From Okamejei kenojei (taxonomy: Eukaryota), in the NCBI GenBank assembly GCA_035221665.1, contig CM069160.1, positions 1,116,001 to 1,180,000 of the forward strand: 64,000 nucleotides of DNA. The letters are read 5' to 3'. How positions within the stretch are numbered: the first letter of the stretch is position 1; each line of letters begins with the position of its first letter. Below, in pieces: positions 1,396 through 64,000 of the stretch. The translations under genes and the position numbers were made by a program. The notes below the pieces were generated by a model that was not told the DNA's origin, did not search any database, and saw nothing but the letters and a program-made list of their open reading frames with translations.

Positions 1396-2289
1396 ATGGT
1401 AAAAACTTATTGCTGAGTGAGTATAATTTTATGGATGAGAAATTGTGTTCGACCTATTGATGACTTATTTGACAAAGTAACTAGCATGTTAGATAACAAG
1501 GAAGCCAATGAATGTAGCAAATTTTTTTTTTTTTTGTTATGCATAATTTGGTCTTTTAAGTGCCCCATAAAGGATCACTGCATTAGATAAGCCACCTGTG
1601 GGCTTGAATGTAATAGGTTAAGACCAGGGGGTCAGATATGGGGCTTTATGTGTGGGCCAGATATATTGTCAGTGCAAAGGGGCTAGGAGCAAAGGCCAAG
1701 TGTGCATCCAGAGTCTAGGTCTGAATAGTACTAGGTCTGCAGTCAAAAGCTGGGACCCAGGGGAATGTTCAGCACTGGGAACCGAAGCAGGTAAATCAGC
1801 TATGATCACGTATTAGTAGAACAGAGTAAGGCTGGACTCGTCGGGGACAGGAATGAGAAGAAGGTATGCAACTGGGAGTCAGGGCCAGAGTAGTACCAGG
1901 TGTGCAGTGAGACCCAGATGGTCAGCATGGGCCAAGGGTATTGATTATAACCTGATATTCATACATGAATACATTAATATGCACCATATGAATACAGTAT
2001 GCACCATAATCGTACAATTTCCAAGCTGAAAAATGCAAAAGTTCGGTAGTACCATTGTGGGGGGGGCACCCTCCTCCCACCCCCCCCCCCCCCCCCAGTC
2101 GCTCTGCTCCCTCGGGCTTGGTCTCTCGCAATTTATGACTCCCAACTGTCACCCAATGTTGGCAGCCCTGAGACCCAATTCCGATCTCGCGTATTGGAGC
2201 AGTGAAAACCAACCTCTCCTGGGCTGTGGGTCAATAGTACGAAAACCTGATCCCTAACCAGTCTGAAAATCACCGTGTATATCTCTCGT

Positions 2290-2397
2290 TTCCCCGATCC
2301 CTAACCAGTCTGAAGAAGGGTCTCGACCCGAAACGTCGCCTATACTCCTTCGCTCCTTAGATGCTGCTGCACCCCGCTGAGTTTTCTCCAGCTTTTT
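2290..2397 (+). mobile_element. Penelope-like element terminus with minimal hammerhead-like motif
   Basis: CTGAAGA-A-GGGT-CTCG-ACCC-GAAA-CG-TC at 2310-2337, followed by the gatgctgc...ctgagtt..tccagc tail typical of these repeats. Confidence 0.65.
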
Positions 2398-2545
2398 GGA
2401 GTCGCCATGCAGTGAATGACTTGCGCCTCACAGACAGGTGAGCACTGCTCAGCCAACGGTTTATCTGCAGTCCCACCAGACGCCTATTGTGGTCCAAAAT
2501 CCTCACCACTGGGGGCGATAAACCACCGTCAACAAGCGCAGTTCA

Positions 2546-2664
2546 CCCGGCAACGATGACGCGTGAGGGACTAAGGCCTGTGATTGGGGAAGGCTGTAGG
2601 AAGTAAGATGACAGGTGACAATAGGCTTTCTGTTGGTTCCTGGTTTCACTTCTGGGGACTTTCC
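2546..2664 (+). promoter_or_regulatory. MHC-type regulatory module: X1/X2 box, Y box, ISRE and kB site
   Basis: CCCGGCAACGATGACG (2546), ATTGG 37 nt after the X start (2583), GGTTTCACTTCT (2642-2653), GGGACTTTCC (2655-2664). Confidence 0.7.
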
Positions 2665-3139
2665 AGCCAGATCCAGTTCCCATTGTCTGAACCAGAGTGA
2701 CTGGTTTGGACAAGGACAATCTTGCAGCTCAGGGGAGCAAGGAGATGGGAGAACATGTGAGCCTTGGGAAGACCAGAAAAGCTGCAGCAGAAACACAGCG
2801 GGTGAGGCAGCATCTATGCCGAGAAGATGGAATAGGCGACGTTTCTGGTCTAGACCTTCTTCGAGACCTTATGTCAGTCTGGGGAAATTATTGGAAAAAT
2901 ATATCTGAGGGACAATATTAATCCTCCCCTTGAGAAGGTAGAGATTAATCAACAGTCAGCTTGGTCTTGTTGGGTGGGAGATCCTGTCTGACAATGTAAG
3001 ACAGCACAGTCAATGTGGTTTAATGAGGTTTAGTAAAGCCTTCTGACAAGATTGCACATGCGACTTTGACTGGCCAATAGTTAGAGCCTGGTGGAACAGG
3101 GTAATGTGAGCTATTTGGATCTAAATTTGGCAGGTAATC

Positions 3140-3268
3140 AGACATTCCCATTTCCTCCACTGACCTTGCTGTTCTGGGCCTCCCCCCTTGTTAGCGTGAG
3201 TCCAAACGTAAATTGGGAGGAAACAGCACCTCATATTTTGCTTGGGTAGCTTAACAACCCAGCGGTTA
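3140..3268 (+). mobile_element. Penelope-like element GIY-YIG endonuclease C-terminal remnant
   Basis: Degenerate coding for ..DLAVLGL..C....RKLEEQHLIF.LGSLQPSG. Confidence 0.7.
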
Positions 3269-3269
3269 G

Positions 3270-4027
3270 GAAAAGGGGAGATGCAGCGAGATCTGGGAGC
3301 GAGAGTCAGTCATTGAAAGTAGGCATGCGGGTGCAGCAGGCAGTGAAGAAAGCGAATGGTATGTTTGCATTCATATCAAGCAAAGGAGATTTGAGTAAAG
3401 GAGCAAGGGAGGTTCTACTTCAGTTGTCCAGGGCCCTTGGTGAGACCACACCTGGAGTATTGCGTACAGTTTGGTTCTCCAAATCTGAGGAAGGAGCATT
3501 ATTGCCATAGAGGAAGTGCAGAGAAGGTTCACCAGACTGATTCCTGGGATGTTCAGTGGAAAAAAACTGTCTTATAAAGAAAGAACCGGATAGACTCGGT
3601 TTATTACTCTCTAGAATTTAGGAGATTGAGAGGGGATCTTATAGAAACTTTAACAAAATTCTTAAGGGAGTTGGACAGCTAGATGCAGGAAGATTGTTCC
3701 CGATGTTGGGAAAGTCCAGGACAAGGGGTCACAGTTTAAGTTTAAGGGGGACAATCCTTTAAGACTGAGATGAGAAAGACATTTTCACACAGAGAGTGGT
3801 GAGTCTCTGGAACTCACTGCCACAGAGTTGAGGCCAGTTCATTGGCTATATTTAAGAGGGAGTTAGATGTGGCCCTTGTGGCTAAAGGGATCAGAGGGTA
3901 TGGAGAGGAGGCAGGTACGGGATAACTTGAGTTGGGATGATCAGCCATGAATCATATTGAATGGCGGTGCAGGCTCGAAGGGGCCGAATGGCCTACTACT
4001 CCCGCATCTAATTTCTATGTTTCTATG
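3270..4027 (+). mobile_element. CR1/HER1-type LINE 3' fragment
   Basis: MKVGMRVQQAVKKANGM... RT C-terminus through to the 3' tail. Confidence 0.9.
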
Positions 4028-49019: not shown

Positions 49020-49130
49020 CAAGGCGGCAACCGGACAGCATTGGTGGCCAGATTGGCCACAATTCAAAGCGAGGGAGAAAGTGCCCAGCGCCGACCAGTT
49101 GCCGTGGCAGTGCGCATGCGTAGGGCGGCC
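49020..49130. promoter_or_regulatory. Candidate promoter (possibly BBS10): two CCAAT boxes, RFX X-box, NRF1-like site, GC box
   Basis: ATTGG twice (49040, 49052), GTTGCCGTGGCAG 49098-49110, TGCGCATGCG 49111-49120, GGGCGG 49123. Confidence 0.45.
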
Positions 49131-50385
49131 GATGATGTGCTGGCCGTGGTTGTGCACATGTGCAGGGGGAGGATGTGCTGGCCATAGCAGTGCGCATGTG
49201 CAGGGGGAGGATGTGCTGGCCGTGGTTGTGCACATGTGCAGGGGGAGGATGTGCTGGCCGTAGCAGTGCACATGTGCAGGGGGAGGATGTGCTGGCCGTA
49301 GCAGTGCGCATGTGCAGGGGGAGGATGTGCTGGCCGTAGCAGTGCGCGTGTGGAGGGGGTGGATGTGCTGGCCGTAGCAGTGCGCATGTGCAGGGGGAGG
49401 ATGTGCTGGCCGTAGCAGTGTACATGTGCAGGGGGAGGATGTGCTGGCCGTAGCAGTGCACATGTGCAGGGGGAGGATGTGCTGGCCGTAGCAGTGCGCA
49501 TGTGCAGGGGGAGGATGTGCTGGCCGCGCATGTGCAGGGAGAGGATGTGCTGGCCGTAGCAGTGCGCATGTGCAGGGCGGCCGATGATGTGCTGGCCGTA
49601 GCAGTGCGCGTGTGCAGGGGGAGGATGTGCTGGCCGTAGCAGTGCACATGTGCAGGGGGTGGATGTGCTGGCCGTAGCAGTGCGCGTGTGCAGGGGGAGG
49701 ATGTGCTGGCCATAGCAGTGCACATGTGCAGGGGGTGGATGTGCTGGCCGTAGTTGTGCGCATGTGCAGGGGGAGGATGTGCTGGCCATAGCAGTGCGCG
49801 TGTGCAGGGGGTGGATGTGCTGGCCGTGCCGTGTGTGGCTGGCATGTGCAGGGGGATGGATGTGCTGGTCGTAGCAGTGCACATGTGCAGGGGGAGGATG
49901 TGCTGGCCGTAGCAGTGCACATGTGCAGGGGGAGGATGTGCTGGCCGTAGCAGTGCACATGTGCAGGGGGAGGATGTGCTGGCCGTAGCAGTGCATGTGC
50001 AGGGGGAGGATGTGCTGGCCGTAGCAGTGCACATGTGCAGGGCGGCCGATGATGTGCTGGCCGTAGCAGTGCGCGTGTGCAGGGGGAGGATGTGCTGGCC
50101 GTAGCAGTGCATGTGCATGTGCTGGCCGTGGTTGTGCGCATGTGCAGGGGGAGGATGTGCTGGCCGTAGCAGTGCACATGTGCAGGGCGGTCAAGGATGT
50201 GCTGGCCGTAGCAGTGCGCGTGTGCAGGGGGAGGATGTGCTGGCCGTAGCAGTGCGCATGTGCAGGGGGAGGATGTGCTGGCCGTAGCAGTGCACATGTG
50301 CAGGGGGAGGATGTGCTGGCCGTAGCAGTGCACATGTGCAGGGCGGTCAATGATGTGCTGGCCGTAGCGGTGCGCATGTGGAAGG
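49110..50385. repeat. 38-bp minisatellite GGATGTGCTGGCCGTAGCAGTGC(A/G)CATGTGCAGGGGGA, about 33 copies
   Basis: Period 38 read directly (49261 to 49299); accounts for the 378-518 aa repetitive ORFs. Confidence 0.95.
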
Positions 50386-50876
50386 TGCTGCCGTGCCGGC
50401 AGATGAGGAGCGAGCGGAGAGCGATGACCCGGCGGCCCGGACACGGATGGCGGGCGGAGACGGAGATTAACAGACAAAGAGAGAGAGAGAGATAGAAAGG
50501 GGTGCCCGCCCTGAGTTAAACGGCAGATGTCCTGCCTTGGTTGGAGGCCCCCTAGATTTTGAAGCCCTAGGCTTCAGCCTATGAAGCCTTGTGGTAAATC
50601 CGGCTTTGCGAGGCCCCCCTAGATCTCGAGGACTTAAGCTTAACCTTGTGAAACTTATACGTAAATCCGGCCCTGGTTGCGTGTGTTACTAGTGTATGCC
50701 AGATGCTGCCTTGTACTCCAGAAGCATTGAGCTACTCCATGCATCACGCCCTTTGACCTGATGTGCAACCACCCTATAGGGTGGGACAATGGACAATGAT
50801 GACTCGACATGGGGCAACTGCTAGGGTGAGGGGCAAAAAGGGGAGCCGCGTGCTTTCTAACTTTGTCAGCACTAGG

Positions 50877-52016: not shown

Positions 52017-52234
52017 ATTAACTTTTCGTACTGAAAACATTTGGCACTGTGATTTTCCTTAGATTTTTGCAATGTTTGAGTGATACTCTGAATATTCTGT
52101 ACAGCATCCAAAGTGCCCAATCCTCATCGGAGCCCAGTCGTAGCCACCAGACTGAACTCCCCCTTATTGGGTCCTTTGGTTAATCAAAATAACAGAACTT
52201 AATCATAGTCTCGTTATCTTTACCGCCGGGGCTT
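52017..52234 (-). repeat. Inverted ~215 bp copy of proviral leader/FCHO2 segment 53396-53611
   Basis: Near-identical reverse complement read directly. Confidence 0.92.
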
Positions 52235-52394: not shown

Positions 52395-53018
52395 TGTGAG
52401 GGATAAAATGATTAAACCCCACTATTGTAAGGGCTCAGGAGAGGATTCTAACCGATAGAGGCTAGGGAGAGGATTCTGACACAGCTGTGGATGAAGTTAC
52501 CAGAACTGTCCTTGAGTAAGGATTGATGGCATTGTATAGCGGTAGAAGGGAGTGATGGATGCGACCCTTATCAGTAGAGTAGTGATGGATGTGACCCTTG
52601 TCAATAGAGTCTAGCTTTTAATTCAGATACAAGAGAACTGAGAGAGGTCAGTTGGAGGTGAGCAAACTGGGGCAGGTCATTTACAACTGAGCATGCTTAA
52701 TGAAATAAATGAATATTACTAACACACCCCTGGTCAAGAAACTGCTCATTACCATGCACATGTATGGACATGCGATGTATGATGTGGGAGGTACTGGGGG
52801 GACGAACCTATAGACTGTGCACCTCAGTGCCCTGATTGGAGAGGGCCAGAAGGGGAGGTTAAATGTAGAATTGTGTGTATAAAGGGGCTTTACTTTCCTG
52901 ACTTTGGTGTGTCTCAACTTGGAGAGGCACCCGACTCTGCAGACTCGCAAATAAAGCATTTCTTGTTTCCATGATTTAGTCTCTGAGTAGTGATTGTGAG
53001 CACAACCTATATCTCACA
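52395..53018 (+). repeat. 5' LTR
   Basis: ATTGG, TATAAA (~52878) and AATAAA (~52950); about 11 substitutions versus the 3' LTR by manual count. Confidence 0.97.
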
Positions 53019-53021
53019 AAG

Positions 53022-53039
53022 TGGGGGCTCGTCCGCGAT
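53022..53039 (+). other. Primer-binding site, tRNA-Pro
   Basis: TGGGGGCTCGTCCGCGAT, 17/18 match to canonical TGGGGGCTCGTCCGGGAT. Confidence 0.92.
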
Positions 53040-53511
53040 CGCCACTCCGGCCACTCCGGCCACTCGGCGGAAGCACGGAAGGAAGGGAAGGTGCACCCTG
53101 CTGATTTCAGCAGTCTCTGATCTCCTTGCTTGCCATCAGCGGTTTGAGCGAGTGATATCCGGACAAGAGACTCGGGAAACAAGAGGGAGTGTCGGAAAAA
53201 TAAACAAGGGACGGTCAAGCGATTCTTGTGCACAAGACCCGGGTAAGAAAACTGACTATTAAGTATTGCCCGGGCGACCGAGGGTCTGTCGGACGGGAAT
53301 AGTCCGATAACCAGAACGGGAAAAGTAAGAGTCCGGGGGGGAAAAGAAATAGGCTCAATGGTGAAGAGCCGCACAGGCAATCTTGGAGAGAAGGAAGCCC
53401 CGCGGGTAAAAATAAGGAGACTATGATTAAGTTCTGTTATTTTGATTAACCAAAGGAACCAATAAGGGGGAGTTCAGTCTGGTGGCCACGACTGGGCTCC
53501 GATGAGGATTG

Positions 53512-53861
53512 GGCACTTTGGATGCTGTACAGAATATTCAGAGTATCACTCAAACATTGCAAAAATCTAAGGAAAATCACAGTGCCAAATGCATTGAGTA
53601 CGAAAAGTTAAAAAAAAGGAAGGAGCAATACAGAAAGAACTAGAAAAGGCAACTGTCAAATCTAAAAAAAAAAGCTACAGAAACCTATAAATCATATGTG
53701 GAAAAACAGATTTTGAACAAAAATTGACAGAAACCTCGAAGAAATTTCAGGAAATGGAAGCTCATCTTAAGCACGTGAAAGAAATATTGAGTTGTTTCAC
53801 ACAATCTTTAGAAGAAACTCATATACAGATTGGTCAGGTACATGAGGAGTTAGTGCATAGC
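53512..53861 (+). pseudogene. FCHO2: Captured, intronless fragment of host FCHO2 (F-BAR domain) inside the ERV
   Basis: [111 protein letters not shown]; frameshifts in A-runs. Confidence 0.88.
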
Positions 53862-54339
53862 AGAAAGTAGAGTAGCAATAAGAATTATATAAATGTTAAT
53901 TTTGAAACTTTAATCTGTGTAGGAAATTGCATAATTTCATTGAAGTAAGAATGGAACAAATGTGATTTGTGTGTAAAAACCGGTTTTGAATGAATGAGGA
54001 AGTTCATATATATGATAGGTTTGTTTGCTGTAGGCCACATGCTGTAAGGGTAGGTGTGTGTGTTCCTTTAAGAAATTGTAAGTGATGGGGGAGGTTACCA
54101 ACAGCTGTAAGGTAACGAACAACGCTTTGTATCATCGCAACATAAAAGGGGAAAGTTGGAAAATGTAGGTTGCTTGGTTTCTATAGATTTCTTTTCAGTA
54201 AAGTTAATTTGGAAAATTGTTACTAGTACTAGGAATTGGAAATTTAAAAATAGTGGTGAGAATGGATTAAAATAATTGGAAATAAGTTAATTGCTGAAAC
54301 ATGACCAGCTTTTGTCGTTTGTTTAGATAAACATTCTGG

Positions 54340-55680
54340 TTGGAGAAGGGTAATGATTGTTTGCTGAGAATTTCAGAAACAGTTGTGAGGAAGTGGCACA
54401 AGGGAGGCACTTTCAAGATAAATTAGTGTCAAGATGGAAGTGTTAATTATGAATTATATGCCACAGATAAGTTGGAAAGGTGGGAAAAGAGGAGAGGAAA
54501 GGAATTAGATGTACTTAGGCAGTTTAGAGAGAAAGGTGAGAGAGGCAGTGAGGAGGTAACAGAAGTAGGAAACGACAGGTGTGAAAGTAATAAATCAGGA
54601 GGAGTCAGTGGAAGATTTTAAAAGGAAGGTGAATACATTTGCAAAGGAGGATAGACTATCTGAGAAGTAAGAAATTGAGTTTAGAATGCGAAAGAAGGCA
54701 TATCAGAAAGGATTAAAGTGGGAAGCAGAGGGATAAATTGATGAGACGGCTTTAAACAGATAAGAGCAGGACAGACACAGATTATCCTTTGGGGCACCCA
54801 TAAACTGAGAGGGCTAAAAAAACCTTACCCAGTGTTCCTGATGGCGCAGGAAATGGATTATGGCTTTGGAGGACGATTATTGGCTATGGGAGATTTGAAG
54901 GCACTGTTTGTGAAAGTGATAGGAACCACTAAACTGACAGAACTCCTGAAGATGGCTGGTATAAAAATGCTGTGAACAATGCAATAAACAATGGCATGCT
55001 GTTTGACACAGTCAGGCAGGGGGTATGGCAGGCTCTCAGACAAAAATCCAGCAGCCTATCTGGAGAACAAGCTGAAAAGGTGGAGACTGGAAACTGAACA
55101 AAAATAGAAGGCAACCAGTTAATGAACACTATATTCTGAACCACTGTGGTGGATGTCATTCCTCCTAAAGTCAAGTCTAGATTGGAGGAGGTGGTGGGAT
55201 TGTCATCTATTTCCCACCCCTGATTCAGTGATCACTTGGTCAATGAGGTTGAGAAATATCGCAAAGATAGGAAAAAGACTTGCAGACCAGCAGGAAGAGG
55301 TGCAGAGAAAAATGATGCAAATGTAACTTGAAGAGTTCAAAAAGAAAGAGCGTGAAAAAGGAAAGACAATGTTGTCAGTAACAACAGACCTGGTTGAAAA
55401 GTCTGAAATAAGTGATGCACCGACACACAGTGAGTCATATGACAGAGCCAAACAGGGGCCAGATAATTCCATGCCAATAATAAATGTATTTGGGAGAGTA
55501 TTTCCTCAAATGCCCTATCAGGAGTGAAATAAATCTGGATATAAGCCCAGACAGGACTGGGGTCCCCAAGGGAGGGAGGGATCTCAAGGAGGAGGTCAAG
55601 AAAGGCTAGTAAGGAGATAGGTAATGGATAAGGTGTGTTGGGGGTGTGAACAGGTATGGTAATCAGGAAATAATAATAAC
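54340..55680 (+). pseudogene. gag: Highly degraded gag remnant
   Basis: W..GGTF, LP....GAG.WI..L..GRLLAMGDLKALF motifs resembling fish epsilon-like gag. Confidence 0.55.
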
Positions 55681-55799
55681 ATTAAGATAATGGTGAACAT
55701 AGCTATGGTAAGAACATTAAGAAGAGGTATTAAATACCCTAGGCTAGGGTGCAGTAGGGTTTTAAATACTAGCCCCATGTTTTTAATCAGATGTTGTAG

Positions 55800-56870
55800 G
55801 CAGATTTGGATATAGTATGTGGATGATTTGTTGGTTTGTTCAGCAAGTGAGAAGCAATGTGAGAGACATTGTAATTATCTTGGAAAAGATGGCACAGAGG
55901 GTCATAATGTATCAAGGAAGAAGTTGTTGTTTTGTCAGCAGCAGGTAGAATATTTTGGACAAGTAATATCTAAAGAAGCTATAGCGCAGGATCAAATTGA
56001 AGCGATAATTGAAGTTCCCAAACCTCAGACAGTAGAACAGATGATGATGATCTTGGGAATGGCAGGATATAGTTCAGACTAGATTGGGAAGTATGTTGAA
56101 ATTGTGATGCCATTAAGGAAAATAATGAAGGAAGAAGGACACACAAGTCTGAGAAATGTTTTACAGTCAGAGCCTTTGAATGAAGGGGACAAAAAGGTTT
56201 TGCTTGTGGATGTTTCTTGTTAAAGGGATCATAATAGCAAGTATGCAGGGTTTGAAGTGATGCATCAGGATGAATTAGACTTTAAGGTAATCAAATTGGA
56301 AGCTTGCCTGCAATCTTGCTTAGCTCAGTTGGCAGAAATTAAGGCTTTAAGAGCAGCATATGTATATGGAGTCTGGCACATGTTTGGAAGAGTCGGGAAA
56401 CAGAAAAGCTTTGAGAAAAGCAATGGAGACCCCATGCAAAGTTAGCAGTATCCCCCTATGAAATGTTGTTTGGGTTACCTTATTTGGGAAAGATAGAAGG
56501 AAACCCATCATAGAGGGCAGTGATGTATTCTTAAGGAACTATTTACTGGCAGTATCTCGTTCTCTTACAGAATTAAAAGCTAAAGGATTATTGGCTCAAA
56601 GCCCACCACTCGACTTTCCAATACAGGCTGTAAAGGCCGGCGACTGGGTACTGGTCAAGAATTGGAAGGAGGAGAAACTCCAGCCCCGGTGGACCAGCCC
56701 ATACCTAGTATTACTGACAACCAAGACAGCAGTACGAACAAAAGAAAAAGGGTAGACCCACGCAATCCGGGTTAAGTGACCCGTTGACCCACCCGCTCCT
56801 GATAAAGAGGAACAGTGGATGGTGAAGCCAGGGAATAAACCCCTAACATTAACTTTTAGAAAAAAATAAA
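55800..56870 (+). pseudogene. pol: Deleted pol remnant (RT YVDD, RNase H pieces, integrase C-terminus)
   Basis: YVDDLLVCS..GHNVSRKKLLFCQQQVEYFG; AQLAEIKAL; GDWVLVKNWKEEKLQPRWTSPYLVLLTT. Confidence 0.85.
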
Positions 56871-56885
56871 TGTATAACTAGCAGT

Positions 56886-58705
56886 ATGAAAGGAGCAGTT
56901 GTGGTATTGCTTGCTCTGCATGTAATCAGGGTAAAAAGTATTAATAACTGTGATAAATGTTATCATCCTATCAGATACGGAGGGCGGACAACCAGATCAT
57001 TTACCTATCATTCCCATATGAACGATGCTTGCTATAACCTGAGGACTAAAACTATTTGTGAGGACGGGGGAAAGAAGTATTATATGGTAGAGAATAGGGG
57101 ATATGTAGGGAGGTTTGGGTACGTTACCTGCCTAAAGGGGGAGAGATGGGTTTGTATGACTAGGACAGGACAGTTAGGTCTCCCTTTCCAGGCCTTAAGA
57201 TTGACATTAGACAAAATGAAGGAGGAAGTAATAAAAAGGTTAACGAAAGTAGTAGTCACCAAGCCTCCCCCTCCCCCACCTACTCAGCCTCAATTGCACC
57301 AGACAATGTATGAAGAAATAAAGAAGCAGATTGAGATCCCTGAAAGAGGGAAAAATCTGTTTGTGGACTTGGCCCTCCGGATAGCTGGAATCCTGAATGT
57401 GACTAACTGTTGGGTCTGTGGCGGACCACTGATGAGCTCACGTTGGCCGTAGAGAGGATCCATTGTTGAAGTATGGGACCTGATGGAGTGGAACCTGACA
57501 GTTGGACAAGACCGAGATCCCCAGGCATGGGTCCTGACAGACGCTCTGGTTGTGATTTAGTGTATCGCTAGGCCCTGGGCAAGGGATGACGTCCTAGTAA
57601 GCAGCAGTCCCTGCCAGCGCATCGTCACCCAGTGGCCAAATCAGTCCCGAGTGTGGTGGCCAGAGGAGCCTAAATGGTATCCAACTAAGAAAGACGGGAG
57701 AAACTGCACTATCTGGATGAAGACTGATGGAATGGGATCGACAGGACTATGGAACTGCACCGGGAACAACCCTTATCAAGGAATCCCGGTGTTGCGAGAC
57801 TTATGGAACACGGTTATCTCTAGTGGACCGGCCCCTGAAGGACTGTTATGGATATGCGGACACAAGGCATACTCAGTGTTGCCAACAAATTGGAGCGGGA
57901 CTTGCTTCATTGGACTGGTACAACCGGGACTTTTCCTGTTAAACACCGAAGAAGGGCGGTCGCTAGGAACACCTGTATTTGACAACCTATATCGGAAGAA
58001 GAGGAAAATAGACATTGGAGAATGGGAAGATGATGAATGACCACCCACAAGAATCATCTCATACTACGGACCAGCCACTTGGGCACAGGATGGACCCTGG
58101 GGCTACTGAACCCTGGTATACACGTTAAAACGGATCATAAGACTTCAGGCAGTACTGGAGGTAATTACCAACCAAACTGCAGTGGCACTGGAGATGCTGG
58201 CAAAGCAGCAGATGCAGATGAGAGCTGCAATATACCAGAACCGGTTGGCCCTAGATTACCTCCTGGCAGAAGAAGTAGGGGTATGCGGGAAATTCAACCT
58301 CTCTAATTGCTGTCTAAACATCGATGACAATGGACAGGCAGTGATGGACATATCAGAAGGAATCCGTAAGTTGGCATATGTTCCAATACAAAAGTGGAAT
58401 TCGATTATGGGTACCCGATGGTGGGATTCCATCCTCGGAGGAACATGGTGGAGAACGGTGGGGCTCGTGTTTCTATGTGCATTGGCTGGGCTGATCTTTA
58501 TCCCCTGTTGTATCCCTTGTTTTAGGGAACTTATTGCAAGGAGTATAAGTCAGATGCAGGCCTCTAGTCGTGCCTATGGGAGAGAAAGGGGTAATACAGA
58601 AAATAATGATAATGCGATCAGGGAAGGTCCAGGATCCACAGGAAGAGGAGATTAGGACAATGTTACTTCAATTCGAACGGAAGGAGCTTGAAATTGAGGT
58701 TTAAT
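56886..58705 (+). pseudogene. env: Gamma-type env (ERV3/HERV-E-like) with premature stops
   Basis: Signal peptide; NLFVDLA..NVTNCWVCGG (CxxC); RKKR furin site; [15 protein letters not shown]; [10 protein letters not shown]; TM; stops near 57450, 58038 and 58108. Confidence 0.92.
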
Positions 58706-58738: not shown

Positions 58739-59362
58739 TGTGAGGGATAAAATGATTAAACCCCACTATTATAAAGGCTCAGGAGAGGATTCTAACTGAT
58801 AGAGGCCAGGGAGAGTATTCTGACACAGCTGTGGATGAAGTTACCAGAACTGTCCTTGAGTAAGGATTGATGGCATTGTATAGCGGTAGAAGGGAGTGAT
58901 GGATGCGATCCTTATCAGTAGAGTAGTGATGGATGTGACCCTTGTCAGTAGAGTCTAGCTTTTAATTCAGATACAAGAGAACTGTGAGAGGTCAGTTGGA
59001 GGTAAGCAAACTGGGGCAGGTCATTTACAACTGAGCATGCTTAATGAAATAAATGAATATTACTAACACACCCCTGGTCAAGAAACTGCTCATTACCATG
59101 CACGTGTATGGACATGCGATGTATGATGTGGGAGGTACTGGGGGGACGAACCTATAGACTGTGCACCTCAGTGCCCTGATTGGAGAGGGCCAGAAGGGGA
59201 GGTTAAATGTAGAATTGTGTGTATAAAGGGGCTTTACTTTCCTGACTTTGGTGTGTCTCAACTTGGAGAGGCACCCGACTCTGCACACTCGCAAATAAAG
59301 CATTTCTTGTTTCCATGATTTAGTCTCTGAGTAGTGATTGTGAGCACAACCTATATCTCACA
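58739..59362 (+). repeat. 3' LTR
   Basis: Preceded by polypurine tract AAAAGAAAAAGGGAGGA; followed by TGTG TSD. Confidence 0.97.
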
Positions 59363-60674: not shown

Positions 60675-61445
60675 TAATTGGGGATAACACGAGGATCTAA
60701 GGGGGTAGAAGAACTGAAATAAATTTTCATTAGGCGAGAAATTGTATTGGGTAGGCTAATGGGACTGGAGGATGATAAATCCCTTGGGCCTGTTGGTCTG
60801 CATCCCAGGGTCCTCAGGGAGGTGGCACGAGAAATAGTGGACGCATTAGTGATCATTTCCCAATGTACAATAGATTCAGGATCAGTTCCTGTGGATTGGA
60901 GGATAGCTAACGTTATCCCACTTTTCAAGAAAGGAGCGAGAGAGAAAACGGGGAATTACAGACCAGTTAGCCTGACTTCGGTGGTGGGAAAGATGCTGGA
61001 GTCAATTATTAAAGACGTAATAATGGGGCATTTGGATAGCAGTAAAAGGATTAGTCCAAGTCAACATGGATTTATGAAAGGGAAATCATGCTTGACTAAT
61101 CTTCTGGATTTTTTTGAGGATGTGACAAGTAAAATGGATGAAGGGGTGCCCGTGGATGTAGTGTATCTAGACGTTCAGAAAGCCTTTGATACGGTCCTGT
61201 ATGGGAGACTGGTGATTAAAATTACAGCACAAGGTATTAAGGGTAGGGTGTTGACATGGATAGAAAATTGGTTGGCTGACCGGAAGCAAAGAGTAGGAGC
61301 GAACGGGTCCTTTTCAGAATGGCAGGCAGTGGCAAGTGGAGTGCCGCAAGGCTCGGTGTTGGGGCCGCAACTGTTTACCATATATATTAATGATTTGGAA
61401 GAGGGAATTAGGAGCAACATTAGCAAGTTTGCGGATTACACAAAG
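60675..61445 (+). mobile_element. CR1 ORF2 reverse-transcriptase fragment
   Basis: ORF 60747..: NYRPVSLTS..QHGFMKGKSCLTNL..GVPQGSVLGPQLFTIYINDL..SKFAD. Confidence 0.95.
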
Positions 61446-62255
61446 CAGGGAGGGAGGGAGGGAGGGAGGGAGGGAGGGAGGAAAGAAGGAAAGAAAGAAG
61501 GAAAGAAAGAAGGAAAGAAAGAAGGCAAGAAAGAAGNNNNNNNNNNNNNNNNNNNNNNNNNNNNNNNNNNNNNNNNNNNNNNNNNNNNNNNNNNNNNNNN
61601 NNNNNNNNNNNNNNNNNNNNNNNNNNNNNNNNNNNNNNNNNNNNNNNNNNNNNNNNNNNNNNNNNNNNNNNNNNNNNNNNNAAAGATAGATAGATAGATC
61701 AAGACAGACAGACAAGATGAGAGTTTTAGTGACAGACAGACAGATAGAGAGAGGGGGGGTGGGAGTCAAAAAATTGGAAGTATATGAGTGGAGTTAAATG
61801 GAATGAGAGTGTGGGAAATGGTACAGAAGTCTCCAGAATTAATGAGACAGAAAGTATAAGAAGGGATAAGAGAGTAACGATGGATATAATCGGGACCAGT
61901 GTGAGAGGGGAGGTGAATACCAAATTACAGGTGTTGTATTTACATGCGTGCAGTAAGTGGATGAGCTTGTGGCACAGTTGGAAATTGGTATGTATGATGT
62001 TGGGGGAATTACAGAGACGTGGCTGCAAGAGGATCGGAGCTCGGAGTTGAATCTTCAAGGTTAAACATCATATCGGAATGACAGAAAGATGGATAGAGTG
62101 AGTGGGGTAGCTCTGTTGGTAAAGAATGACTTTTCTCCAGAGATGCTACCTGACCCGCTGAGTTGCTCCAGTGTTTTGTGTCAGTGTCTGTGCTGTATGA
62201 TTGTGAGGGTGGTGTTATTGCCGTGTGTGAGTGGTGTTTGTGGTTCTGTGCAGGG

Positions 62256-62440
62256 ATGTGCGGTGAGCTGGACGTGGGGATGCTGCTGCAGGTAGCGGCG
62301 GCTCTGGAGAGCGTGCTGTCCCCGTGCTTTGGTCCACAAGGTGGCCAGGTACTGTTCACCAGTGCCACAGGTGAGGTGCTCATCACCAGGGACGGGGTGA
62401 CTATCCTGGACTCACTGATGCTGGAGCACCCTGTCGCCAG
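62256..62440 (+). CDS. BBS10: Bardet-Biedl syndrome 10 (chaperonin-like) first coding exon
   Basis: MCGELDVGMLLQVAAALESVLSPCFGPQGGQVLFTSATGEVLITRDGVTILDSLMLEHPVA-R; phase-2 donor AG|GTcagt at the position of the conserved BBS10 intron (after EHP.AR); acceptor tgtgcAG at 62253. Confidence 0.9.
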
Positions 62441-62444
62441 GTCA

Positions 62445-63590
62445 GTCTCCCCCTGTACCTTTCCCCCTGAACCCGGCTACTCCCAGCTACAACACTCCCC
62501 CTGAACCCAGCTACTCCCAGCACCAACACTCCCCCTGAACCCAGCTACTCCCAGCGCCAAGACTCCCAGCGCAACACTCCCCCTGTACCTCTCCTCCTGA
62601 ACCCGGCTACTCCCAGCTACAACACTCCCCCTGAACCCAGCTACTCCCAGCGCCAACACTCCCCCTGAACCCAGCTACTCCCAGCGCAACACTCCCCCTG
62701 TACCTCTCCCCCTGAACCCAGCTACTCCCAGCTACAACACTCCCCCTGAACCCAGCTACTCCCAGCGCCAACACTCCCCCTGAACCCAGCTACTCCCAGC
62801 GCCAACACTCCCAGCGCAAACACTCCCCCTGTACCTCTCCCCCTGAACCTGGCTACTCCCAGCTACAACACTCCCCCTGTACCGGGCTACTCCCAGCGCC
62901 AACACTCCCAGCGCAACACTAATCCTGTACCTCTCCCCCTGTACCCGGCTACTCTTAGGGACAACACTCCCCCTGAACCCAGCTGCTCCCAGCGCCAACA
63001 CTCTCCCTGTACCCGGCTACTCCCAGCGCCAACACTCCCCCTGTACCCGGCTACTCCCAGCTACAACACTCCCCCTGTACCCGGCTACTCCCAGCTACAA
63101 CACTTCCTCCGTACCCGGCTACTCCCAACGTCAACACTCCCCCTGTACCCGGCTACTCCCAGCGCCAACACTCCCCCTGTATCCGGCTACTCCCAGCGCC
63201 AACACTCCCAGCGCAACACTAATCCTGTACCTCACCCTCTGTACCCGGCTACTCCCAGCGCCAAACACTCCCCCTGTACCCAGCTACTCCTAGGGACAAC
63301 ACTCCCCCTGAACCCAGCTGCTCCCAGTGCCAACACTCTCCCGTACCCGGCTACTCCCAGCTCCAACACTCCCCCTGTACCCGGCTACTCCCAGCGCCAA
63401 CACTCCCCCTGTACCCGGCTACTCCCAGCTACATCACTCCCCCTGTACCCGGCTACTCCCAGCGCCTACACTCCCCCTGTACCCGGCTACTCCCAGCGCC
63501 AACACTCCCCCTGTACCCGGCTACTCCCAGCTACATCACTCCCCCTGTACCCGGCTACTCCCAGCTCCTACACTCCCCCCGTACCCACCA
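62445..63590. repeat. 34-bp minisatellite CTCCCCCTGTACCCGGCTACTCCCAGCGCCAACA in the BBS10 intron
   Basis: Period 34 read directly (63001 to 63035). Confidence 0.93.
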
Positions 63591-64000
63591 CTCACAGTGT
63601 TAATTCTTCCCTGCACCATTACCCCCCGCATGAAGTGTGTTGGGTGTATTGGGGTGTGTGTGTTGGTGGTGTTTAACGAGTATGGGTGTCTTAGGGAGTG
63701 TCTGGGTTGGGGGAGGGGTAGTATTTGGGATGTGTGTTAAATGCGGTTATGCTGGGCTTTGTGAATGTTGGGATGTTTGGAACTTGTGTTGGGGTGGGTG
63801 TTGGGTTTGGTGTGTGTGAGATGACGGAATATTTGTGGCGTATTGGGGATGTGCGTGTGGGTCAGTTGCCGTGTTTGTTGGTAAGTATGTGTAGGCACGT
63901 GTGTGAATTGGTGTATGTTTGTGTGAGTTGCCGTGTGTTGGTGCTCGTGAGAGTTGGCTAGCACGTCTTGGCGTGCGTGTGCGTTGGTGCATGTTTCTTG

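Follow-up and report, generated by a model that had tools for sequence, protein, structure and literature searches.

A skate endogenous retrovirus family carrying a permuted FCHO2 insert that probably derives from a circular RNA

An endogenous retrovirus (ERV) family in the genome of the skate Okamejei kenojei carries, within its gag gene, an intronless piece of host FCHO2 whose exons stand in permuted order in the less-deleted family members, and the insert family is best read from these sequences as one full turn of a circle of exons 2 to 8. The insert was probably copied from a co-packaged circular RNA via two template switches of reverse transcriptase, and it is likely to have spread as noncoding cargo of a helper-dependent family. 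One member lies in the stretch of 64,000 nucleotides analyzed here (hereafter the window; contig CM069160.1 of assembly GCA_035221665.1, forward strand, positions 1,116,001 to 1,180,000). An earlier note on the window, made from the letters alone, had described this member as an ERV with a captured host FCHO2 mRNA fragment.

The provirus in the window and its FCHO2 insert

The features of the window provirus are listed in Table 1. Its 624-nt LTRs align without gaps and are identical at 613 of 624 positions (11 mismatches), the element is flanked by a 4-bp target-site duplication (TSD), and its primer-binding site is presumably of the tRNA-Pro type. The gag segment in front of the insert belongs to the matrix region by position, lying upstream of Gag_p30 in an empty-site relative, that is, an element in which gag is uninterrupted at the insertion site. 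The decayed remnants behind the insert, in which gag and RNase H are labeled by motif, are likely to stem from a second ERV lineage; blastn gave no match between this region, including the downstream gag remnant, and the closest empty-site relative. We assign the family to the gamma-type (class I) ERVs based on Gag_p30, zf-CCHC, an MLV-type integrase C terminus, and a TLV_coat env, the first two domains coming from the empty-site relative and the RT being mostly deleted in the copies examined. The TLV_coat match in the env of this relative (E 4e-7) is above the cut-off.

Table 1. Features of the window provirus and of a neighboring family-member fragment, in window positions
Feature	Position	Strand	Remarks
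Inverted family-member fragment: gag 5′ part and FCHO2 e5 nt 20–118	52018..52234	-	same gag–FCHO2 junction; 160 nt upstream of the provirus 5′ LTR
5′ LTR, 624 nt	52395..53018	+	TSD TGTG precedes; 613/624 to 3′ LTR
Primer-binding site	53022..53039	+	sequence
gag 5′ part, ends at capture junction	53376..53512	+	colinear with empty-site relative up to the junction
FCHO2 exon 5 nt 20–153, putative start of the captured circle	53513..53648	+	out of frame with gag
FCHO2 exon 6	53649..53741	+	A-run slip and 16-nt deletion typical of window-type copies
FCHO2 exon 7	53742..53837	+	91.9% to host exon
FCHO2 exon 8 nt 1–20	53838..53857	+	
Decayed gag-, RT-, and RNase H-like remnants	53858..56440	+	RVT_1 E 7e-4, below cut-off
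Integrase C-terminal remnant	56443..56797	+	Pfam MLVIN_C E 9e-11
env, stop-broken	56853..58655	+	TLV_coat E 0.001, below cut-off
3′ LTR	58739..59362	+	purine tract before, TGTG after

That the insert is intronless FCHO2 F-BAR sequence is borne out by homology. Positions 53513–53857 correspond to FCHO2 residues 123 to 243, approximately, of the F-BAR domain (match to PDB entry 2v0o, the human protein); two pieces match at residues 123–156 (E 1.3e-10) and 189–243 (E 7e-15), and translation of 53512–53871 gives FCHO2-like peptides whose frame shifts along the stretch. A homolog search with the insert yielded FCHO-type domains in all 67 homologs returned. The named homologs were chondrichthyan FCHO2 (one labeled hypothetical), with skates at the top at 84% identity. 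A Pfam search did not recognize the short FCHO2 pieces of the window. The translated FCHO2 exons of the Okamejei kenojei genome itself are identical to skate FCHO2 across several exons, and comparison with them resolves the window insert into e5 (nt 20–153), e6, e7, and e8 (nt 1–20), joined across the host exon junctions without introns and damaged by A-run slips and by the loss of 16 nt in e6 and 3 nt in e7. The donor is thus skate FCHO2, by both the top match and the exon comparison, and FCHO1 was rejected as a donor. The insert ends at 53857, not at 53861 as first reported, and its placement between the primer-binding site and a gag remnant needs correction, since empty-site relatives reveal that the matrix region of gag is itself interrupted. 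Separately, the N terminus of FCHO2 has a second, remoter match in the genome (G000:C28:32432410-32438287, minus strand; 52–74%), which is likely the FCHO1 paralog.

Uninterrupted gag at the insertion site was found at 14 loci, 2 of them close relatives and 12 members of a more distant family. The closest empty-site relative is 87–88% identical to the carriers over LTR, leader, and gag start; it has Gag_p30, a zinc knuckle, a weak protease match, an MLV-type integrase tail, and env, and most of its pol is deleted.

A genome search with the insert gave 639 candidates, 40 of which were scored, all at 89–100% identity, and at 30 of 30 loci examined the sequence runs on past the insert into the same ERV. 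We counted 156 loci with the gag–FCHO2 junction (at most two mismatches; control 0); contigs of DNA-type runs from four organisms cover it, and in three of these the 3′ junction is bridged. The host RNA sequence lies inside an element bearing both LTRs, and the junction sequences reveal neither a TSD nor a poly(A) tail belonging to the insert. The idea of a gene-capture lineage therefore stands, one junction being common to 156 loci. An independent retrocopy unique to this locus was rejected.

Further features were observed elsewhere in the window. An ORF at 62154–62504 (+) encodes the beginning of a Cpn60_TCP1 domain (E 2e-10) and resembles CCT subunits only distantly; it probably represents exon 1 of a chaperonin-like gene such as BBS10. 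A reverse-transcriptase fragment at 60723–61433 (+; RVT_1 E 1e-24) is presumably LINE-like, going by its motifs, and minisatellite arrays with 38-nt and 34-nt units occupy 49025–50437 and 62430–63654.

Exon order in the family and the host FCHO2 locus

Host coding exons e2 to e8, delimited by their AG/GT ends and numbered with the unlocated ATG exon as exon 1, measure 92, 75, 142, 153, 105, 99, and 97 nt, 763 nt in total. With the N terminus of skate FCHO2 as query, we recovered the host gene together with many copies whose early residues stand behind the late ones. Exon-by-exon comparison of less-deleted relatives of the window copy, referred to as full-circle type, gave the order e5 (nt 20–153)–e6–e7–e8–e2–e3–e4–e5 (nt 1–18/24). 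The gag stretch behind the insert, used as query, returned 27 loci: 25 with FCHO2, 1 empty-site relative, and 1 host RRBP1 exon. Among the FCHO2-bearing loci, 22 have the permuted order and the 3 others retain the 3′ part only; colinear order was not seen in any of the 25.

The join between e8 and e2 combines the exact host donor end with the exact acceptor start, so that the noncolinear junction falls precisely at host splice sites. It was found at 14 loci (at most one mismatch; control 0), 8 of which match perfectly, and contigs from three DNA-type runs span it with no mismatch, but with just 29 letters on one side where the rule asked for 31, and are therefore not counted as bridging it. 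Internal deletions differ between lineages, all seven exons being covered jointly, and the insert closes on itself to within 1 base in exon 5. It is this pattern that would correspond to a single turn of a 763-nt circle. The window copy has lost the remaining circle with the back-splice junction, as well as the RRBP1 and CCHCR1 sequences described later, and its link to that junction is through the 5′ junction that it has in common with the relatives, through the tree, and through alleles that it shares with them. Of the original description of the insert as a captured host mRNA fragment, the capture is thus upheld, and the linear mRNA template does not agree with the permuted exons 2–8 and the exact back-splice junction of the relatives.

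Inverted repeats that flank exons promote back-splicing. In host FCHO2, an intronic inverted repeat of 146 nt (79%) brackets e2 and e8, one arm 241 nt upstream of the acceptor and the other about 114 nt downstream of the donor, which lends a circle of these exons independent, if indirect, support. When 91 ordered exon pairs were compared with 1,200-nt flanks, no other pair had an inverted intronic match; with 600-nt flanks, an additional weak match of 33 nt appears for e2/e14. The intronic duplex predicted for e2/e8 has an energy of -163 kcal/mol versus a control mean of -44, a value reached by 0 of 300 controls, and the upstream intron folded alone was unremarkable (z -1). The known human circFCHO2 (hsa_circ_0002490) consists, according to the accessible part of its description, of exons 19–20 and differs from the exon 2–8 circle.

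These data bear on whether a linear FCHO2 mRNA could have been the template, the end of exon 8 having been joined to the start of exon 2 by an extra reverse-transcriptase jump or by later rearrangement within the ERV. Dong et al. (2016; PMC4897178) pointed out that noncolinear junctions also arise when reverse transcriptase jumps across structured linear RNA. The skate element did take up linear RRBP1 and CCHCR1 pieces, internal deletions are frequent in it, and there is short homology at the two splice junctions, for which, however, the longest local match predicts one base more than is observed. A jump would also have to strike both donor and acceptor to the base, at the very exon pair that the intronic inverted repeat picks out independently, and exons 9 and 10 have no copies outside the host gene (one match each in a genome search). 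We consider this route improbable.

A linear transcript could have carried the e8–e2 junction already, through tandem duplication of exons 2–8 in the host or through trans-splicing or exon repetition. In the host-locus sequence compared, about 130 kb interrupted by a 1-kb gap, however, each of e2 to e8 is present once; the host-locus stretches examined contain no tandem duplication of these exons, and the mRNA-like FCHO2 contigs of two organisms are colinear. Each of these processes would yield the exact spliced junction, and exon repetition cannot be separated from a circle by sequence alone, but none accounts for an insert that has the length of one unit and closes within 1 nt, and we regard them as quite improbable. 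Within the 25 kb upstream of host e2, no exon 1 was detected. Four presumed-RNA contig sets contained no contig across e8–e2; assembled contigs drop rare variants.

Capture, spread, and decay of the insert

Under the favored reading, with a circle as template, a host exon 2–8 circular RNA would have been packaged into a retroviral particle. Minus-strand synthesis would have left gag and entered the circle at an 8-nt match corresponding to the 3′ junction, where 7 of 8 nt are the same in the gag of the carriers and in FCHO2 exon 5. The reverse transcriptase would then have copied the circle once and been forced back to gag with little homology, the return switch at the 5′ junction having 1 exact nt (3/4). 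As the closest empty-site relative differs from the carriers at one microhomology base, the parent junction is approximate. RNase H had probably already cut the circle at the point where copying began, and we propose that cutting of this first hybrid is the reason for both the single turn and the asymmetric homology of the junctions; that such a cut forced the return, and so explains exactly one turn, seems to us slightly better than an even bet. The microsimilarity between gag and FCHO2 at the switch points fits the double switch of Tan et al. (2016; PMC5131818), as far as the accessible part of that study describes it.

The microsimilarity also bears on entry at the DNA level, in which cDNA of the circle was placed into an integrated provirus, by LINE machinery or by a single crossover with circular DNA, before the provirus spread. 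Such a crossover, too, produces a permuted insert of one turn, and a 5-nt word stands at both insert ends, but the gag/FCHO2 match already accounts for this repeated word. The carriers have lost about 5 nt of gag at the FCHO2 site rather than having them duplicated, there is no poly(A), and the same lineage took up other host RNAs, which makes DNA-level entry very improbable.

Those other host RNAs are found in full-circle copies, where about 95 nt of resumed gag are followed by RRBP1 (10 exons) and CCHCR1 (3 exons) sequence, both spliced and colinear, the viral RRBP1 piece being 92% identical to skate RRBP1. In the copy L031 (G000:C13), the RRBP1 cargo (positions 2277–3113) has its 10 exons spliced and a protein match that skips from residue 708 to 874, and the CCHCR1 cargo (positions 3230–3800) comprises three spliced 3′ exons and extends beyond the stop codon. 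Host stretches used for comparison were L080–L082 and L100 for the RRBP1 exons and L099 for CCHCR1. An Atlas search with the second cargo returned generic coiled coils only, RRBP1 being named by another search; the FCHO2, RRBP1, and CCHCR1 pieces all encode coiled coil. Host RRBP1 and the family-wide viral state differ by 18 nonsynonymous and 3 synonymous changes, the reverse of FCHO2, and at 10 of the 18 nonsynonymous sites the virus agrees with Amblyraja. Host RRBP1 is possibly fast-evolving in this genome.

Spread from a single capture is supported by the one junction in 156 loci, by shared alleles, and by the tree. The latter comprises 43 stretches (26 of 30 window-type, 15 full-circle-type, and 2 empty-site; the rest lacked an anchor or were not entered) and groups the window type into a single clade (97/89) that lies within the full-circle copies; outside this clade, support is low, and the bootstrap had not fully settled. 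The best reading is that the window-type subfamily, which keeps only e5 to the start of e8, arose from the full-circle type by later recombination or deletion. LTR mismatch amounts to 3.1–7.7% in 12 full-circle-type elements versus 1.8–3.8% in 4 window-type elements, consistent with a younger age of the window type. Two recombinants of a second ERV family, the distant empty-site one (L116:2316-2498 and L119:2720-2845), combine an intact gag start with a scrap of FCHO2 e6–e8 and a window-type interior, so the cargo was passed on by recombination. With gag destroyed in the carriers, a helper must have supplied the proteins, and no intact helper was identified.

The insert decays neutrally, with pN/pS of about 0.7–1.3. 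In 53 copies compared with the host exons (two error-rich loci excluded), private changes number 61 synonymous to 176 nonsynonymous or stop (pN/pS 0.69–0.97) and subclade changes 14 to 53 (pN/pS 0.91–1.28), and there are 23 distinct stop events. Of 41 copies, 40 have the insert out of frame with gag at the junction, and no intact in-frame ORF under purifying selection was found. The window copy is noncoding, as the earlier note had it, and its suggestion of an ancestral accessory ORF gains no support from the frame or from the selection analysis. The one observation that resembles purifying selection is the 13 synonymous to 3 nonsynonymous family-wide differences from the FCHO2 of this genome. 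Of the 13 synonymous alleles, however, 12 are carried by mRNA-like FCHO2 contigs of another organism (organism E), as read from absent differences at covered sites, with mismatch totals in agreement. The synonymous excess thus reflects divergence of the host gene and not viral selection. The insert, moreover, starts in the middle of the domain, and a 763-nt circle shifts the frame at its junction, so that a past accessory-protein role of the F-BAR piece in endocytosis or budding is hardly credible.

The 12-to-0 split of alleles (binomial p 0.0005) means that either the donor was nearer to organism E and the family spread across species, or the host lineage here was faster. A contig of organism B has the alleles of the Okamejei kenojei genome in e4, and at RRBP1 residues the virus is mostly in the outgroup state, the donor polarity being mixed. 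The full scenario, in which the whole circle was captured in a different skate lineage, limited to one turn by RNase H, and then carried across species into this one, is offered tentatively.

Relation to known captures and implications

Oncogene-bearing retroviruses provide a familiar comparison. In acutely transforming retroviruses, gag-onc fusions such as v-fps/fes, an F-BAR kinase, place a host insert in gag and render the virus helper-dependent; the skate ERV differs from them in having neither an in-frame fusion nor selection on a protein. Closer in host range are the crocodilian ERVs that captured KIT-ligand (CrocERV29) and nectin3 (CrocERV31), in which, similarly, spliced host RNA was fixed in a multicopy ERV lineage of a nonmammalian vertebrate (Chong et al. 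2014; PMC4299795). In the accessible part of that article, these captures are linear ORFs under purifying selection, whereas the skate insert is permuted, out of frame, and neutral.

The skate family shares with LTR-mediated retroposition, as covered in the accessible part of Tan et al. (PMC5131818), a double switch at microsimilarity, chimeras of several genes, and nonautonomous spread. There, however, the templates are mRNAs, the word "circular" being absent from the main text, and the insert replaces part of the element; the skate insert would be circle-derived, and just about 5 nt of gag are lost at its site. With circRNA-derived pseudogenes (Dong et al. 2016; PMC4897178), it has in common a genomic back-splice exon junction, noncolinear order, and the lack of poly(A). 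That study called the mechanism unknown and described no switch points. The skate ERV adds a putative whole circle within gag, both junctions, empty-site relatives, and a visible length of one turn, in a cartilaginous fish and with 156 descendant loci. In its sequence features, the family fits both LTR-mediated retroposition and a putative circRNA-derived pseudogene.

The 33 mouse circRFWD2 copies reported by Dong et al. (PMC4897178) are enriched in flanking LTR sequence, marked MMERVK10C-int in the legend, and a 2017 review (PMC5408686) states, in its accessible part, that flanking LTRs "may suggest" LTR mediation of circRNA pseudogenes. These MMERVK10C-flanked copies may represent a precedent that went unrecognized, which would limit the novelty of the skate family to that of a variant of LTR-mediated retroposition and circRNA-derived pseudogenes. 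A literature search, with most subscription journals outside its coverage, found no description of a skate FCHO2 ERV family or of whole-circRNA capture inside an ERV gene.

Since both switch points, near-parental empty sites, and the circle's exact length can still be read in the family, it offers a testable mechanism for the passage from circRNA to DNA. Such a mechanism would imply that retroviral particles can take up circRNAs even though these have no poly(A), and the insert would document back-splicing in a cartilaginous fish at the DNA level. The 14 genomic loci with the e8–e2 junction could, for their part, yield false circFCHO2 calls in skate RNA-seq. If the reading of a whole circle carried across species is true, ERVs would be a general archive of ancient back-splicing and would supply the missing mechanism for circRNA-derived pseudogenes.
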